Assembly: GCF_050920415.1 (NCBI RefSeq)
Contig: NZ_CP169309.1
Strand: one strand, 5' to 3'
DNA length: 64,000 nt
Source: Escherichia coli
GTDB lineage: Bacteria; Pseudomonadota; Gammaproteobacteria; Enterobacterales; Enterobacteriaceae
Shown: one piece after another, positions 22 through 38,787 of the stretch
Position numbering within the stretch: position 1 is the first letter of the stretch
Layout: every line of letters starts with the position of its first letter
The notes under the pieces: generated by a model
Seen by the model: only the letters and a program-made list of their open reading frames with translations
What the model was told of the DNA's origin: nothing
Databases searched by the model: none
Translations under genes and position numbers: made by a program

Positions 22-684
22 TTAAGTATTTTCCAGATAATGCTTCAGTGTTAAACGCAGTTCCGGGCTCATGCTGTCCAGGTTATTAAATAACCAGCGC
101 AGATAGCCCGGATCGCGTTCGGCAACGTCGGAAACCGCTTTGCCACGGTATTTGCCAAAGGTGAAGGTCGTCATCAACGATGGACGTCCGGTGATATCGG
201 CCATCTGTTCTGCCGTCCAGCCGGAGGTGTTCATAATATCGATAAGCAACGCAGCGGTGATATAACAGTCATACAACGCGCGGTGATGATGCAGGCCCGG
301 CGGCGTCTGTACATTGAGCTTCCGTGTTTTATATAACGCCATATTGCTGTACTTGATCCCTGGCCACAGACGACGGGCCAGTTTCATAGTGCAAATCCAC
401 TCACCGGGCATCTCAGGCAGTACGCGGCGGTCAAAGCTGGCGTTGTGCGCGACATACCATTCACTACCGTAATAGTGCGGGATCACATCTTCAATCCACG
501 GTTTATCGGCGACCATGGCTTCGGTGATGCGATGAATCGCCATCGCCTGTGGACTAATAGGACGATCGGGGCGCACCAGGTGGCTCATGGGGTTGACGAT
601 TTTTCCGTCAATGACATCAACAGAGGCAATCTCAACGATCCCTCCCTGCAAACCGCAGGTTTCTGTATCGATAATGCGCAACAT
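22..684 (-). CDS. exoX: exodeoxyribonuclease X (DnaQ-like 3'-5' exonuclease)
   Basis: ORF 22..738 (-); translation from internal Met MLRIIDTETCGLQGG... matches E. coli ExoX (220 aa) as recalled; start placed at that Met. Confidence 0.9.
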   Translation of the reverse strand: MLRIIDTETCGLQGGIVEIASVDVIDGKIVNPMSHLVRPDRPISPQAMAIHRITEAMVADKPWIEDVIPHYYGSEWYVAHNASFDRRVLPEMPGEWICTMKLARRLWPGIKYSNMALYKTRKLNVQTPPGLHHHRALYDCYITAALLIDIMNTSGWTAEQMADITGRPSLMTTFTFGKYRGKAVSDVAERDPGYLRWLFNNLDSMSPELRLTLKHYLENT

Positions 685-707
685 GGCATGCTCCAGGCCG
701 AAAAAGC

Positions 708-1364
708 CTAGCGTAATGGAATGATATCGCCTTGCCAACCCTGTGATGAACGCTGACCGACTAACAATAATGAACCACGATCGGCGCGAACGATGAGACG
801 ACCATGTTCATCCCATAGTGCACTGTTACCACGGGCATTTGCCATCAGCACGGCAATTGAGTACTGATGTGAAAAAAATTGTAAGCGGCGGGTCGACGCC
901 AGCAGGTCGGGTTCCCCCAGACATTGCCCTGTCGTAAATAGTGAACAGGTCGGATCCATATCCATACCTTGCGGTTGTTCATCGACCACCGTGATGGTTC
1001 TGGAACGACGGCCCAGACATGCACCATGACTCTGATGGTAGATCCCTGGCGTTTTTCGCCACGGTGCGAACACCGCAATTCCACGAATAAAGCGATCGTT
1101 ATATTCAACGGGAAGGCCGGCAATGATGGTCATTCGCCAGGTCGTTGCAGCATAACAAAGCGGGTCTAACAGCGAGAGATCGGGTGGGGCAGGAAGGGCA
1201 CGTCGCGAATAATCACACCCCAGTAAAGAAAGCGATGGAAAAACTAACAGCTGACATTGTTGCCTGGCGGCGGCCCTCACAAACTCCAGATGATGAGCTA
1301 CCTGTTCAGTCAGTGAGGTTGTACGAGGCTCATATTGCGCTGCTGCGACTTTCCAGAACGACAT
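708..1364 (-). CDS. yobB: carbon-nitrogen hydrolase (nitrilase superfamily) protein
   Basis: ORF track 218 aa; position between exoX and holE as in K-12; identity recalled, not searched. Confidence 0.85.
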   Translation of the reverse strand: MSFWKVAAAQYEPRTTSLTEQVAHHLEFVRAAARQQCQLLVFPSLSLLGCDYSRRALPAPPDLSLLDPLCYAATTWRMTIIAGLPVEYNDRFIRGIAVFAPWRKTPGIYHQSHGACLGRRSRTITVVDEQPQGMDMDPTCSLFTTGQCLGEPDLLASTRRLQFFSHQYSIAVLMANARGNSALWDEHGRLIVRADRGSLLLVGQRSSQGWQGDIIPLR

Positions 1365-1465
1365 AATGACTTCCTTTTCAAAATGACTGTAAATTATGGG
1401 TGCGGTTTAGAAAATACTCATAATTTAGCAGGCGTTATGTAAGAAAGTGTAACTCTGTATAAGTT

Positions 1466-1696
1466 TTATTTAAGTTTGGGCTCGTAAGGTAAACGTGACA
1501 GATTGACCGAAGCCAAACGGTGGGCGATAAGCCGCTCGCGAAACCAGCTGCGCAAATGTTCAGGCTGTTCACGTTCAACCGCTTCAGCGATCACCGGCAT
1601 ATTGTAGCGTTCTTTAAATGCCACCCCGGCTGCCGCCAAATCGACATTCACTTTATCCATTTCTGTTTGATCCAGTTTAGCCAGATTCTTCAGCAT
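1466..1696 (-). CDS. holE: DNA polymerase III theta subunit
   Basis: ORF 1466..1783 (-); internal Met [35 protein letters not shown]... gives 76 aa matching HolE. Confidence 0.9.
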
Positions 1697-1834
1697 TCTT
1701 AATCTCCTCATCATTCGCGGGCAAAAGTTACTAAGAGTGAGCCTGGATGGCAAGCCGGAATTGATGATCCTCGACTCAGACATTAGACAAGGTTATGCTC
1801 TGTAAAAAAGTTATTACAAAAAGGAATAGATAAT

Positions 1835-2209
1835 ATGACTTCAACTGCACGCTCCTTTCGCTACGCGCTGGCAATCCTGACCACTACGTTGGTGACACCT
1901 TCCGTCTGGGCACATGCGCATTTAACGCATCAGTATCCTGCGGCAAACGCGCAAGTGACAGCTGCCCCGCAGGCAATCACTTTAAACTTCTCGGAAGGCG
2001 TTGAAACAGGATTCAGTGGTGCAAAAATCACGGGGCCAAAAAACGAAAATATTAAAACATTACCGGCGAAGCGGAATGAGCAGGACCAAAAGCAACTGAT
2101 TGTTCCACTGGCCGATTCGCTGAAACCCGGAACCTACACCGTTGACTGGCATGTTGTTTCGGTGGACGGGCATAAAACGAAAGGGCACTACACCTTTAGC
2201 GTGAAATAA
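1835..2209 (+). CDS. yobA: CopC-family periplasmic copper-binding protein
   Basis: ORF 124 aa with N-terminal signal peptide then HAHL... (mature N-terminal His typical of CopC Cu site). Confidence 0.9.
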   Translation: MTSTARSFRYALAILTTTLVTPSVWAHAHLTHQYPAANAQVTAAPQAITLNFSEGVETGFSGAKITGPKNENIKTLPAKRNEQDQKQLIVPLADSLKPGTYTVDWHVVSVDGHKTKGHYTFSVK

Positions 2210-2212
2210 ATC

Positions 2213-3085
2213 ATGCTGGCGTTTACCTGGATCGCGCTGCGATTTATCCATTTCACCTCGCTGATGCTGGTTTTTGGCTTCGCAATGTACGGTGCCTGGC
2301 TGGCCCCCTTAACGATTCGTCGCTTGCTGACGAAGCGTTTTCTGCGTTTACAACAGCACGCTGCCGTCTGGAGTTTGATCAGTGCCACTGCAATGCTCGC
2401 CGTTCAGGGCGGGTTGATGGGAACGGGATGGTCAGATGTATTTTCGCCAAACATTTGGCAGGCTGTTTTGCAAACGCAGTTTGGTGGCGTCTGGTTATGG
2501 CAAATTGTTCTCGCCCTCGTAACGTTGATCGTCGCCCTTATGCAACCGCGGAATATGCCACGTTTGCTGTTTATGCTCACTACCGCGCAATTTATTCTGC
2601 TGGCGGGAGTCGGGCATGCGACGCTGAATGAAGGGGTAACGGCGAAAATCCATCAGACTAATCACGCGATTCACCTGATCTGTGCGGCGGCGTGGTTTGG
2701 AGGATTACTTCCGGTGCTCTGGTGTATGCAACTCATCAAAGGCCGTTGGCGACACCAGGCTATTCAGGCGCTGATGCGTTTTTCCTGGTGCGGGCATTTT
2801 GCGGTGATCGGCGTACTGGCAAGCGGCGTGCTTAATGCATTGTTGATTACCAGATTTCCCCCCACGCTTACGACTTACTGGGGCCAACTCTTATTGCTCA
2901 AAGCCATCCTGGTGATGATTATGGTGGTCATCGCGCTGGCTAATCGTTATGTTCTTGTACCGCGCATGAGGCAGGATGAAAATCGTGCGGCTCCCTGGTT
3001 TGTGTGGATGACTAAACTCGAATGGGCGATAGGTGCGGTAGTGCTGGTGATCATCAGCCTGCTTGCGACTCTCGAACCTTTTTGA
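2213..3085 (+). CDS. copD: CopD-family inner membrane copper resistance protein
   Basis: ORF 290 aa, polytopic membrane protein, 3 nt after yobA stop (operon); matches YebZ/CopD. Confidence 0.9.
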   Translation: MLAFTWIALRFIHFTSLMLVFGFAMYGAWLAPLTIRRLLTKRFLRLQQHAAVWSLISATAMLAVQGGLMGTGWSDVFSPNIWQAVLQTQFGGVWLWQIVLALVTLIVALMQPRNMPRLLFMLTTAQFILLAGVGHATLNEGVTAKIHQTNHAIHLICAAAWFGGLLPVLWCMQLIKGRWRHQAIQALMRFSWCGHFAVIGVLASGVLNALLITRFPPTLTTYWGQLLLLKAILVMIMVVIALANRYVLVPRMRQDENRAAPWFVWMTKLEWAIGAVVLVIISLLATLEPF

Positions 3086-3097
3086 TGGATTACGAAA

Positions 3098-3439
3098 ATG
3101 ATGAAAAAAAGTATTCTGGCGTTTCTGTTACTCACCAGTTCTGCAGCGGCGCTGGCGGCACCGCAGGTGATTACCGTCAGTCGTTTTGAAGTGGGTAAAG
3201 ACAAATGGGCATTTAACCGCGAAGAGGTGATGCTGACATGCCGACCGGGCCATGCGTTGTATGTTATTAATCCGAGTACCCTCGTGCAGTATCCTTTGAA
3301 CGATATCGCACAAAAGGAAGTCGCCAGCGGGAAGACCAATGCCCAGCCCATTTCGGTGATTCAGATTGATGATCCTAACAATCCAGGTGAAAAAATGAGT
3401 CTGGCACCGTTTATAGAGCGAGCTGAAAAACTCTGTTAA
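3098..3439 (+). CDS. yebY: DUF2511 family secreted protein
   Basis: ORF 113 aa with signal peptide; third gene of yobA-copD-yebY operon. Confidence 0.85.
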
Positions 3440-3470
3440 TTACCTAAAATAGCCTTTTGATTTCCAATAA

Positions 3471-3509
3471 AAAACCGCCTCAGTTCTTTCACCAGAACAG
3501 GCGGTTTTT
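3471..3509. terminator. bidirectional intrinsic terminator hairpin (yebY / RyeA)
   Basis: 10-bp perfect stem AAAACCGCCT...AGGCGGTTTT flanked by A/T runs on both sides. Confidence 0.6.
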
Positions 3510-3596
3510 AACATTTAAGCTGATGACCACCACGCTTTTTATTGACCATTTTGCACGCAAACTGGAAAACCTGGCGTCGTCATCTATTCTTAAAGG

Positions 3597-3699
3597 GCAA
3601 GGCAACTAAGCCTGCATTAATGCCAACTTTTAGCGCACGGCTCTCTCCCAAGAGCCATTTCCCTGGACCGAATACAGGAATCGTGTTCGGTCTCTTTTT
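3597..3699 (+). ncRNA. sdsR: SdsR (RyeB) RpoS-dependent sRNA
   Basis: Sequence GCAAGGCAACTAAGCCTGCATTAATGCC...CCGAATACAGGAATCGTGTTCGGTCTCTTTTT matches SdsR as recalled; sigmaS-like -10 TCTATTCTT at 3582..3590; 3' terminator hairpin plus T-run. Confidence 0.7.
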
Positions 3700-3833
3700 A
3701 TCTGTTAAAAGCCAGAAGCATTCCCTTCGCTGACTTTATAGTCAACCATAACACACACTCTACTGTCTGAGTCCAGCGTTTTTTAACATTCTTGTTAAGA
3801 TTATGTGATCTTTAGCGCGGGAGGAAAATATTG

Positions 3834-4490
3834 ATGAAACAGCCTGCGCCCGTTTATCAGAGAATTGCGGGTCATCAATGGCGACATATCTGGCTTTCAG
3901 GTGATATACACGGATGTCTTGAGCAGTTGCGCCGCAAATTATGGCATTGTCGTTTTGATCCGTGGCGAGATTTACTTATCTCAGTGGGAGACGTTATCGA
4001 TCGTGGGCCGCAAAGTTTACGCTGTCTGCAGTTACTGGATCAACGTTGGGTTCGTGCGGTAAGAGGCAATCATGAACAGATGGCGATGGATGCGCTGGCA
4101 TCCCAGCAGATGTCTTTGTGGTTGATGAATGGCGGCGACTGGTTTATTGCGCTGGCAGATAATCAACAGAAACAAGCGAAAACGGCGCTGGAAAAATGTC
4201 AGTATTTGCCCTTTATTCTTGAAGTACACAGTCGCACCGGCAAACATGTTATTGCCCATGCCGATTATCCGGATGATGTTTATGAATGGCAAAAGGACGT
4301 CGATTTGCATCAGGTCTTGTGGAGCCGCTCACGATTACGTGAAGGCCAAAAAGGGCAGGGAATTACAGGTGCTGATCATTTCTGGTTTGGTCATACACCG
4401 TTGCGCCATCGCGTGGATATTGGCAACCTACATTATATTGATACCGGTGCTGTCTTTGGGGGAGAACTGACTCTTGTGCAATTGCAATAA
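3834..4490 (+). CDS. pphA: serine/threonine protein phosphatase 1 (PrpA)
   Basis: ORF 3831..4490; metallophosphatase motifs GDIHG, GDVIDRG, GNHE visible; 218 aa from second Met. Confidence 0.9.
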   Translation: MKQPAPVYQRIAGHQWRHIWLSGDIHGCLEQLRRKLWHCRFDPWRDLLISVGDVIDRGPQSLRCLQLLDQRWVRAVRGNHEQMAMDALASQQMSLWLMNGGDWFIALADNQQKQAKTALEKCQYLPFILEVHSRTGKHVIAHADYPDDVYEWQKDVDLHQVLWSRSRLREGQKGQGITGADHFWFGHTPLRHRVDIGNLHYIDTGAVFGGELTLVQLQ

Positions 4491-18542: not shown

Positions 18543-19211
18543 TCCTTCCTCAATCTTGAGTAACCCCGTCGTTGAAGGGTTACTCAATTCATCCTGATTA
18601 TACGCACTGTCATGGTGCAACTGCTTCAAATTAAAACTCTGGTCTGACTTCAAATAATTATCATATTATTTATTTGCGTAACGGGATATCAGAAAAAGAT
18701 ATTTAGCCCATTAATTTATTAGGATGTTTACATCGGATTTGTGATTAAGCGTGTTATTATTTATTAGCGAAACGTTTCTCTCTTGATTTTTTTGCGCATT
18801 CATCAATTTTTCTTATTTTAAATTTACAATACCTTTGGCGATTGACTTCTCTTTGGGGTGATTGATAGCCGTTAACTGACTGTTTTATGAGAAAAAGTGA
18901 TATAACTTTTTATTCATTGCATAGCAGAAAATGTGATATTGCACGCACTATGTAATAACTTCTCCCATTGGCCTGGAACAACTGAACTTATTGAACTATG
19001 TTAGAAAATACGTCAGTTTAAGTATCTGCCTGAACTGGCAAGGTTAAGCACAATGATATATCGGCGCGTATTCCGTTGCATAAGTGTGCAAAAAAAGTGG
19101 AAGACGTATCGAGATTTGTGCGTCTGATCGAGACATGTTTAAAAATGGCTTGCCATAATTAACGTTGTATGTGATAACAGATTTCGGGTTAAACGAGGTA
19201 CAGTTCTGTTT

Positions 19212-19355
19212 ATGTGTGGCATTTTCAGTAAAGAAGTCCTGAGTAAACACGTTGACGTTGAATACCGCTTCTCTGCCGAGCCTTATATTGGTGCCTCATG
19301 CAGTAATGTGTCAGTTTTATCTATGTTATGCCTGCGGGCGAAGAAAACAATCTAA
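19212..19355 (+). CDS. yobF: small protein YobF
   Basis: 47-codon [50 protein letters not shown] read by eye, 12 nt upstream of cspC; absent from ORF track. Confidence 0.8.
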
Positions 19356-19367
19356 GGAATTTTTCAA

Positions 19368-19577
19368 ATGGCAAAGATTAAAGGTCAGGTTAAGTGGTTC
19401 AACGAGTCTAAAGGTTTTGGCTTCATTACTCCGGCTGATGGCAGCAAAGACGTGTTCGTACACTTCTCCGCTATCCAGGGTAATGGCTTCAAAACTCTGG
19501 CTGAAGGTCAGAACGTTGAGTTCGAAATTCAGGACGGCCAGAAAGGTCCGGCAGCTGTTAACGTAACAGCTATCTGA
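19368..19577 (+). CDS. cspC: cold-shock-domain protein CspC
   Basis: ORF 69 aa [20 protein letters not shown]... with RNP motifs. Confidence 0.97.
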
Positions 19578-19622
19578 TCGAATCCACTGATCTGAAGTGT
19601 GAATACGCTTCAATCTCGCTAT

Positions 19623-19649
19623 AAAGCCTCGTCGAATGCGAGGCTTTTT
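19623..19649 (+). terminator. intrinsic terminator of cspC
   Basis: stem AAAGCCTCG / CGAGGCTTT followed by TT. Confidence 0.8.
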
Positions 19650-19742
19650 ACTTTGCTTTATCTTCGCTCCTGGCATTCGGATATTTGCCCGCCGCGTGAT
19701 TCGCGTTACACTTGCGGCCTTTAGTATCCTGCCGGAGTTGTC

Positions 19743-37055: not shown

Positions 37056-38741
37056 TTGAAGAAGGTTTGGCTTAACCGTTATCCCGCGGACGTTCCGACG
37101 GAGATCAACCCTGACCGTTATCAATCTCTGGTAGATATGTTTGAGCAGTCGGTCGCGCGCTACGCCGATCAACCCGCGTTTGTGAATATGGGGGAGGTGA
37201 TGACCTTCCGCAAACTGGAAGAACGCAGTCGCGCGTTTGCCGCTTATTTGCAACAAGGGTTGGGACTGAAGAAAGGCGATCGCGTTGCGTTGATGATGCC
37301 TAATTTATTGCAATATCCGGTGGCGCTGTTTGGCATTTTGCGTGCCGGGATGATTGTCGTAAACGTTAACCCGTTGTATACCCCGCGTGAACTTGAGCAT
37401 CAGCTTAACGATAGCGGCGCATCGGCGATTGTTATCGTGTCTAACTTTGCCCACACTCTGGAAAAAGTGGTTGATAAAACCGCCGTTCAGCACGTAATTC
37501 TGACCCGTATGGGCGATCAGCTATCTACGGCAAAAGGCACGGTAGTCAATTTCGTTGTTAAATACATCAAGCGTCTGGTGCCGAAATACCATCTGCCAGA
37601 TGCCATCTCATTTCGTAGCGCCCTGCACAACGGCTACCGGATGCAGTACGTCAAACCCGAACTGGTGCCGGAAGATTTAGCTTTCCTGCAATACACCGGC
37701 GGTACCACTGGTGTGGCGAAAGGCGCGATGCTGACTCACCGCAATATGCTGGCGAACCTGGAACAGGTTAACGCGACTTATGGGCCGCTGTTGCATCCGG
37801 GCAAAGAGCTGGTGGTGACGGCGCTGCCGCTGTATCACATTTTTGCACTGACCATTAACTGCCTGCTGTTTATTGAACTGGGTGGGCAGAACTTGCTTAT
37901 CACTAACCCGCGCGATATTCCGGGGTTGGTAAAAGAGTTAGCGAAATATCCGTTTACCGCGATAACCGGCGTTAACACCTTGTTCAATGCGTTGCTGAAC
38001 AATAAAGAGTTCCAGCAGCTGGATTTCTCCAGTCTGCATCTTTCTGCAGGCGGTGGTATGCCTGTTCAACAAGTGGTGGCTGAACGTTGGGTGAAACTGA
38101 CCGGACAGTATCTGCTGGAAGGTTATGGCCTGACCGAGTGTGCGCCGCTGGTCAGCGTTAACCCGTATGATATTGATTATCATAGTGGTAGCATCGGTTT
38201 GCCGGTGCCGTCGACGGAAGCCAAACTGGTGGATGATGATGATAACGAAGTACCACCGGGTCAACCGGGTGAGCTTTGTGTCAAAGGACCGCAGGTGATG
38301 CTGGGCTACTGGCAGCGTCCGGATGCCACTGATGAAATCATCAAAAACGGTTGGCTACACACTGGCGACATTGCCGTAATGGACGAAGAAGGTTTCTTAC
38401 GCATCGTTGATCGCAAAAAAGACATGATTCTGGTTTCCGGTTTTAACGTCTATCCCAACGAGATTGAAGATGTCGTCATGCAGCATCCTGGCGTACAGGA
38501 AGTCGCGGCTGTTGGCGTACCTTCCGGCTCAAGTGGTGAAGCGGTGAAAATCTTCGTTGTGAAAAAAGATCCATCGCTTACCGAAGAGTCACTGGTGACT
38601 TTTTGCCGCCGTCAGCTCACGGGCTACAAAGTACCGAAGCTGGTGGAGTTTCGTGATGAGTTACCGAAATCTAACGTCGGAAAAATTTTGCGACGAGAAT
38701 TACGTGACGAAGCGCGCGGCAAAGTGGACAATAAAGCCTGA
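37056..38741 (+). CDS. fadD: long-chain fatty acid-CoA ligase
   Basis: ORF 36990..38741; known TTG start at 37056 giving (M)[15 protein letters not shown]..., 561 aa; AMP-binding motif [16 protein letters not shown]. Confidence 0.95.
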
Positions 38742-38760
38742 GCGTTAAGTCAGTCGTCAG

Positions 38761-38787
38761 ACGCCGGTTAATCCGGCGTTTTTTTTG
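38761..38787 (+). terminator. intrinsic terminator of fadD
   Basis: stem ACGCCGG / CCGGCGT, loop TTAAT, followed by TTTTTTTT. Confidence 0.85.

Follow-up and report, generated by a model that had tools for sequence, protein, structure and literature searches.

The spacer between yebY and pphA in Escherichia coli contains promoters and terminators on both strands, as well as several open reading frames. This raises the question of which transcripts the spacer encodes and which of them has been maintained by selection. The spacer was explored in a stretch of 64,000 nucleotides from contig NZ_CP169309.1, which is referred to here as the window. The region from 3471 to 3760 is almost certainly the sdsR/ryeA locus, which encodes a mutually antisense pair of sRNAs, and no feature of the sequence speaks against this reading. 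This locus is already known and belongs to the textbook biology of E. coli sRNAs.

Genomic Context

The ORF listing of the window has yobA, copD/yebZ, and yebY (3098..3439, +) to the left of the locus and pphA to the right. In K-12 (NC_000913.3), the annotated genes between pphA and yebY are ryeA (b4432, 272 nt) and sdsR (b4433, 104 nt). A first-pass annotation of the window had placed an SdsR/RyeA pair between yebY and pphA, and both the ORFs and the mapping from K-12 show this context to be correct. Its interval, 3471..3760, holds the features to within 0-4 nt, and it leaves out the last few nucleotides of RyeA and anything upstream of the ryeA -10. That description did not include pphA read-through, transcriptional interference, or the prophage attachment site in the 3′ end of sdsR.

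Window coordinates (Table 1) were obtained from alignment to the K-12 annotation and from published end-mapping (Choi 2019, PMC6610125). Exact positions are now fixed for both RNAs, their promoters, and their terminators, and these can be useful for annotation. Rfam covariance models were run on the window at their gathering thresholds. This search, which had been proposed as a check on the pair, matched both Rfam families at full length. Orthologous loci were collected from GTDB species representatives with an exact-pattern scan for the SdsR core. A total of 120 loci were found, and the 109 with full flanks represent Enterobacterales.

A megablast search of 5426 complete E. coli genomes found segment 3300-3900 in all but one of them (5425), with 100% identity to E. 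coli strain 2013C-4282. Between 3440 and 3830, the window differs from K-12 by three SNPs and one 1-nt indel, and none of these is in SdsR or in either -10. Given the Rfam E-values, the folding z-score of SdsR (-4.43), and the presence of the segment in 5425 of 5426 genomes, a chance origin of the sequence features is excluded.

Table 1. Features of the sdsR/ryeA locus, in window positions.
Feature	Position	Strand	Remarks
Bidirectional Rho-independent terminator hairpin	3470..3509	both	serves yebY on + (U-run 3505-3509) and RyeA on - (U-run 3474-3469)
sdsR -35, TGGAAA	3563..3568	+	16-bp spacer to -10
sdsR sigma-S-type -10, TATTCT	3585..3590	+	C(-13) at 3584; discriminator TAA at 3591-3593
SdsR (RyeB) sRNA	3597..3699	+	about 100-103 nt; RF00111 match and K-12 b4433 mapping
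SdsR 5′ hairpin	3597-3615	+	MFE structure
SdsR single-stranded conserved pairing region	about 3616-3638	+	
SdsR RNase E processing site	near 3627-3630	+	published processed 5′ ends
SdsR stem-loop 2	3639-3656	+	MFE structure
SdsR terminator	3665-3693 and U-run	+	
Prophage attachment core, unoccupied	3674..3699		sdsR 3′ end; comparison with E. coli 2014C-3050, analogy with PhiW104
sdsR-pphA spacer	3700..3833	+	crossed by read-through from the sdsR promoter; pphA ATG at 3834
RyeA (SraC) antisense sRNA	3467..3737	-	271 nt; covers all of SdsR and the sdsR promoter; K-12 b4432 mapped
ryeA start sites	3739-3737	-	mature 5′ end 3737
ryeA promoter, extended -10 TGTTATGGT	3753..3745	-	hexamer TATGGT at 3750..3745, TG one base upstream
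63-aa ORF, TTG start	3542..3733	+	spans sdsR promoter, start site, whole sRNA, and terminator
Small ORF	3457..3609	+	
Small ORF	3605..3489	-	
K-12 difference	A-run near 3469		window one base fewer
K-12 difference	3499		window A, K-12 G
K-12 difference	3517		window A, K-12 C; upstream of sdsR -35
K-12 difference	3723		window C, K-12 T; downstream of SdsR terminator

SdsR and Its Promoter

The RF00111 (SdsR_RyeB) model aligned over its positions 1-100 of 100 to 3600..3699 on the plus strand and scored 114.4 bits against a gathering score of 38 (E = 1.8e-21). Annotated K-12 sdsR corresponds to 3596..3699. End-mapping has since moved the K-12 start by 1 nt in the downstream direction, to the position of G3597 here, and the primer 3RACE_SdsRF begins GCAAGGCAAC (Choi 2019, PMC6610125). 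The start of the sRNA claimed at 3597..3699 equals this revised position. The 3′ ends in K-12 are at +100..+102, or 3696..3698 in the window (Choi 2019, PMC6610125). The hairpin and T-run that had been described at the end of the sRNA were found by both the terminator scan and folding, as a stem at 3665..3693 followed by CTTTTT.

The MFE fold of SdsR has three hairpins and an energy of -34.8 kcal/mol (z = -4.43 against dinucleotide shuffles). Three stem-loops and a Rho-independent terminator with a U-run are the structure of an RF00111 member, and the gene is also in the expected place, downstream of yebY on the same strand, with yebY 157 nt upstream. Processed 5′ ends of SdsR have been mapped to +31/+32/+34 (Choi 2019, PMC6610125), and a form named SdsR+32 has also been published.

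The structure was explored in orthologous SdsR sequences, 70 of which are distinct. The terminator helix (3665-3675 with 3683-3693) has standard pairs in 100% of cells, and three of its pairs show compensatory double changes. Each 5′ segment was also folded on its own, and the 5′ hairpin, with 3 bp or more, formed in all 69. Its stems vary widely (GGCU/AGCC, GGUU/AACC, AGGUUC/GAACCU) and the pairing is kept. This per-sequence folding replaced a fixed-length alignment, which mis-registers the 5′ hairpin and gave only 74% paired. Stem-loop 2 is invariant, which is partly forced by the search pattern and says nothing on covariation.

The SdsR sequence, promoter, and terminator are identical to those of K-12 sdsR (b4433, RF00111), which occupies the same place downstream of yebY. 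There are no differences inside the gene, and the nearest are the SNPs at 3517 and 3723. Salmonella SdsR shares its sRNA core and its linkage to yebY with the window, and its promoter also has the sigma-S signature with C(-13) (Frohlich 2012). It differs in the sequence of its 5′ hairpin, which puts a stop codon in the frame of the 63-aa ORF of the window.

Conserved -35 and -10 boxes with a 16-bp spacer have been described for sdsR, together with sigma-S criteria of C(-13), C(-8), G/T(-14), and an A/T-rich discriminator (Frohlich 2012). The role of C(-13) in the sdsR promoter was tested in Salmonella in the same study. All of these sigma-S selectivity features are present in the window. Relative to G3597, C(-13) is at 3584, T(-14) at 3583, and C(-8) at 3589, and the A/T-rich discriminator and the 16-bp spacer are also found. 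All 110 sequences (the 109 orthologous loci and the window) have C3584, T3585, A3586, and T3590. In the -35 box, TGG (3563-3565) is invariant, and AAAA (3566-3569) is kept in at least 90 of the 110. The RpoS-type promoter proposed upstream of SdsR is thus borne out by the invariant C(-13) and CTA core and by the full set of published features. Its -10 string, TCTATTCTT, is present as reported, at 3583..3591 and not at 3582..3590. Replacement of TATTCT by CTCGAG abolished SdsR in K-12 (primer PM_SdsRR; Choi 2019, PMC6610125).

A consensus promoter and terminator scan found the SdsR terminator and missed both real promoters and the bidirectional hairpin. The promoters were missed because the sigma-S and extended -10 types fall below the sigma-70 thresholds of the scan. 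The hairpin was missed because the gap between its arms exceeds the limit of 8. The scan is blind to these types and therefore its null result is uninformative here.

The only sigma-70-like consensus match in the region is CTGAAA-16-TAAAAT at 3423-3450, in the 3′ end of yebY and just downstream of it. This match is close to a once-reported heat-shock promoter of pphA, about 180 bp upstream of the sdsR promoter. The reported heat-shock promoter was found to be inactive (Choi 2019, PMC6610125).

Conservation and the Link to pphA

Across the 109 loci with full flanks, identity to the window is 0.64-1.00 over 3560-3699 and 0.2-0.5 on both sides, with 0.73 in the terminator stem arms. The conserved block is exactly the sdsR promoter and SdsR. 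Conservation is confined to this block and therefore selection follows SdsR and its promoter, in agreement with Frohlich 2012. In 107 of the 120 loci, yebY precedes sdsR in the same orientation, a linkage that was also reported by Frohlich 2012.

The downstream side is related to a different possible role for the plus-strand unit. It could be mainly the promoter and leader of pphA, a stationary-phase sdsR-pphA operon with a leaky terminator, where attenuation yields SdsR as a by-product. Annotated pphA corresponds to 3834..4490 and begins 135 nt past the end of SdsR. Most pphA transcription in K-12 comes from the sdsR promoter, its main promoter, through terminator read-through (Choi 2019, PMC6610125). 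However, pphA is downstream of sdsR in only 27 of the 120 loci, and SdsR is nearly invariant in all of them. In most loci outside E. coli, the immediate downstream gene is not pphA. In addition, SdsR reaches about 300 copies in each cell, and numerous trans targets have been validated for it (literature including Frohlich 2012). A mere by-product of pphA expression is therefore improbable. The pphA link is a lineage-specific addition and not the cause of SdsR conservation.

Two of the contigs that carry the exact SdsR core have unexpected labels, with names from the Bacteroidota. One (L085) is labelled Chryseobacterium sp. 18061 and is 96% identical to a Citrobacter locus. The other (L086) is labelled as a Flavobacterium psychrophilum MAG and is 90% identical to a Phytobacter locus. 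Both are probably mislabelled or mis-binned Enterobacteriaceae DNA in public records.

RyeA

The opposite strand had been expected to encode RyeA, with full overlap of SdsR, and K-12 ryeA does map to 3737..3467 (-). The RF00101 (SraC_RyeA) model aligned over its positions 1-145 of 145 to 3703..3559 (-) and scored 175.1 bits against a gathering score of 37 (E = 2.9e-40). RF00101 and RF00111 are in one Rfam clan, and the RF00101 model reaches no further than the complement of SdsR plus about 40 nt of the sdsR promoter. Such a match would appear wherever SdsR is conserved and is therefore not independent evidence for RyeA. Annotators should be warned that the Rfam RyeA match depends on the SdsR match. 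The real evidence for a putative RyeA in this strain is a promoter, start-site region, and terminator identical to those of K-12, where RyeA was mapped and genetically removed (Choi 2019, PMC6610125).

There are three ryeA start sites in K-12, and the mature 5′ end is the most downstream of these, A3737 here, as covered by primer 3RACE_RyeAF, AAAGTCAGCG... (Choi 2019, PMC6610125). The 5′ end in the window, AAAGTCAGCGAAGG, matches this primer apart from one SNP. The promoter region is identical to that of K-12. Its hexamer, TATGGT, is the one that was mutated experimentally with primer PM_RyeAF (Choi 2019, PMC6610125). An RNA of the RF00101 type has its own sigma-70 promoter on the opposite strand downstream of sdsR, full overlap with sdsR, and a Rho-independent terminator beside yebY. 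All of these are found here, with TGTTATGGT, the same as the mutated K-12 -10, as the promoter. The MFE of RyeA has a z-score of -3.87.

The terminator is a hairpin with 11-nt arms (3470-3480 and 3499-3509) that an inverted-repeat search found to be 100% complementary. It folds on both strands (-19.8 and -20.7 kcal/mol; z = -7.1 and -4.9) with a U-run each way. The arms are about 73% identical across the 109 orthologous loci, and the loop varies. Published 3′ RACE ends of K-12 RyeA at +261..+270 (Choi 2019, PMC6610125) map to the stem base (about 3475) and to the end of the U-run (about 3469), and the annotated end maps to 3467. Both SdsR and RyeA end by Rho-independent termination in vitro (Choi 2019, PMC6610125). 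The first-pass annotation had put the 3′ end of RyeA at this bidirectional hairpin, and the K-12 RACE and in vitro data agree. The hairpin itself occupies 3470..3509, and the U-tail extends to about 3467, past the boundary of 3471 given there.

K-12 ryeA (b4432, RF00101) shares with the window the TATGGT -10, the start-site region, the complete overlap with sdsR, and a hairpin in common with yebY. It is 272 nt in K-12 and 271 nt here, with one U fewer in the terminator tail of the window. RyeA +15 (window 3723) is G here and A in K-12. At window 3499, RyeA has U here and C in K-12, so that the terminator stem has a U-A pair at its base where K-12 has a C.A mismatch. In Salmonella, the sraC -10 is about 24-35 nt further from the SdsR end, which gives a longer SraC.

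It could be argued that only SdsR is functional, with the minus-strand Rfam match a mirror image and RyeA either absent or antisense noise that has no regulatory role here. The limits of the RF00101 model are consistent with this, as is the low conservation outside 3560-3699 in the global alignment. Frohlich 2012 also described sraC as poorly conserved and not essential for control of SdsR. Against this, the ryeA -10, start-site region, and terminator match K-12, where RyeA was not only mapped but also transcribed by sigma-70 polymerase in vitro and removed by mutation of the -10, with effects on SdsR timing and on pphA. A homologous extended -10 is also found downstream of sdsR in other species, as described below. 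A locus with SdsR as its only functional RNA is thus very improbable.

A global MAFFT alignment of the 401-nt regions suggested that the ryeA promoter is unconserved. This low conservation is partly an indel artefact. The raw sequences have a recurring AACCATAACA or GTTATACCACA on the plus strand, equivalent to TGnTAT on the opposite one. Of 115 distinct orthologous downstream regions, 76 contain this motif, and 23 would be expected by shuffling. It is usually 64-86 nt after the SdsR end, compared with 46 nt in E. coli. This spacing matches the published shift in Salmonella and Shigella, where the sraC -10 is about 35 nt further upstream and SraC is longer (Frohlich 2012).

Phage Attachment and Insertion Sites

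In about 238 complete E. coli genomes, the two parts of the sdsR/ryeA locus are at separate places. Strain 2014C-3050 has a lambdoid prophage (tail fibre, Lom, NleG7) directly next to pphA (L123, 5990-6050), and identity to the window resumes at about 3674. In Salmonella, the last 23 bp of ryeB have been published as the attachment site of PhiW104. The prophage junction at about 3674 therefore indicates that phages use the sdsR 3′ end as an attachment core, as PhiW104 does. This core is unoccupied in the window.

A tentative account of the ryeA promoter, which we consider possible and somewhat less probable than its negation, can be proposed for these loci. The promoter may be an extended -10 (TGnTAT) that was inherited across much of the Enterobacteriaceae. 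Mobile elements that repeatedly integrated and excised at the sdsR attachment core would have changed the distance between the promoter and the SdsR 3′ end and left partial SdsR 3′ copies behind, and the E. coli spacer would have been shortened (46 versus 64-86 nt). If this is true, antisense control of the RyeA type has an earlier origin and a wider distribution than the view of a poorly conserved SraC suggests.

Many species other than E. coli possess a partial second copy of the SdsR 3′ end (..TATTCGGTCTTTT..) located 30-80 nt downstream of SdsR. It is preceded by CCGAAA repeats about 11 nt apart (e.g., L005, L116, L015, and L063). E. coli does not have this stretch. The partial copy may be a relic of attachment-site duplication or a second terminator, and it would explain a longer RyeA outside E. 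coli.

An insertion was also seen in E. coli 17MR471, where ISApl1 (IS30-family) is just after the SdsR terminator (L124, 6146-7346), which corresponds to about 3704 in the window. The element is between sdsR and the ryeA promoter and pphA, and both RyeA and pphA of strain 17MR471 are thus expected to be disconnected from the locus.

Small Open Reading Frames

Three small ORFs overlap the locus (Table 1). The 63-aa ORF had been considered almost certainly not coding, and this judgment holds. Of 110 sequences, 88 have a stop in its frame no more than 33 nt from 3599, only three keep the stop position of the window, and its start positions scatter. For the minus-strand ORF (3605..3489), a TTG or ATG start remains in 6 of the 110, and the lengths of all of the ORFs scatter. 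None of the three has a Pfam match or is annotated in K-12 or by PGAP. All three, 3542..3733 (+), 3457..3609 (+), and 3605..3489 (-), were rejected as coding by the frame test, Pfam, and annotation, and the 63-aa ORF should stay uncalled as a gene. The ORFs do exist mechanically, and the core of the 63-aa ORF is strongly conserved at the DNA level. However, that frame runs across a promoter, a start site, and a terminator, and conservation ends exactly at the boundaries of the RNA. It is hardly credible that any of the three encodes a real small protein to which the RNA signals are secondary.

Expression and Function

Expression, sigma-factor dependence, targets, and mutual degradation are known from experiments in K-12 and Salmonella. 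We infer that they hold for this strain from its identity or near-identity to K-12 in SdsR and in the promoters and terminators of the two RNAs. Accumulation of SdsR in stationary phase, its dependence on RpoS, and its binding of Hfq were shown in both K-12 and Salmonella, and RpoS dependence and Hfq binding are inferred for this strain as well. RyeA is known from K-12, Shigella, and Salmonella as an exponential-phase RNA that is reciprocal to SdsR. It was transcribed in vitro by sigma-70 polymerase in K-12 (Choi 2019, PMC6610125).

In stationary phase, sigma-S RNA polymerase would start at G3597 and produce the Hfq-binding SdsR of roughly 100 nt. In growing cells, sigma-70 polymerase would start at 3737-3739 on the minus strand and produce a RyeA of roughly 271 nt that ends at the hairpin in common with yebY. 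The two RNAs would pair over the whole length of SdsR, leading to mutual degradation in which RNase III would be involved. Convergent transcription of ryeA would also interfere with the sdsR promoter. SdsR would repress many mRNAs by base pairing, including tolC, mutS, yhcB, fepA, and yeaG, and ompD in Salmonella. The pairing would occur through the conserved single-stranded stretch at about 3616-3638, and for fepA through the terminator loop also. SdsR would be cut near +31/+32 to give a shorter form. Some sdsR transcripts would pass the SdsR terminator and provide most of the pphA mRNA.

SdsR and RyeA have been called an RNA-RNA toxin-antitoxin pair by Choi et al., in which overexpression of SdsR is toxic through repression of yhcB and is neutralized by RyeA. 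The label is a literature claim that rests on overexpression phenotypes from one laboratory. SdsR changed only about 1.5-fold in the absence of SraC (Frohlich 2012). As in type I toxin-antitoxin systems and other cis-antisense pairs (GadY/gadX; an RNase III-processed sRNA pair, PMC8687705), an antisense RNA neutralizes its partner by an extended duplex and RNase III-dependent decay. Unlike in type I systems, the "toxin" here is a non-coding, Hfq-dependent, trans-acting sRNA with no conserved ORF, and not the mRNA of a toxic peptide.

Other RNA Matches in the Window

Two other Rfam matches were seen in the window. At 19192-19652 (+), the cspA thermoregulator was matched with 135.7 bits, and the 5′ part is poorly aligned. 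Because the model includes coding sequence, the match may represent a paralogue of cspA and not the gene itself. At 38700-38785 (+), a full-length match to the sroD sRNA (115.2 bits) ends in a hairpin and a U-run.
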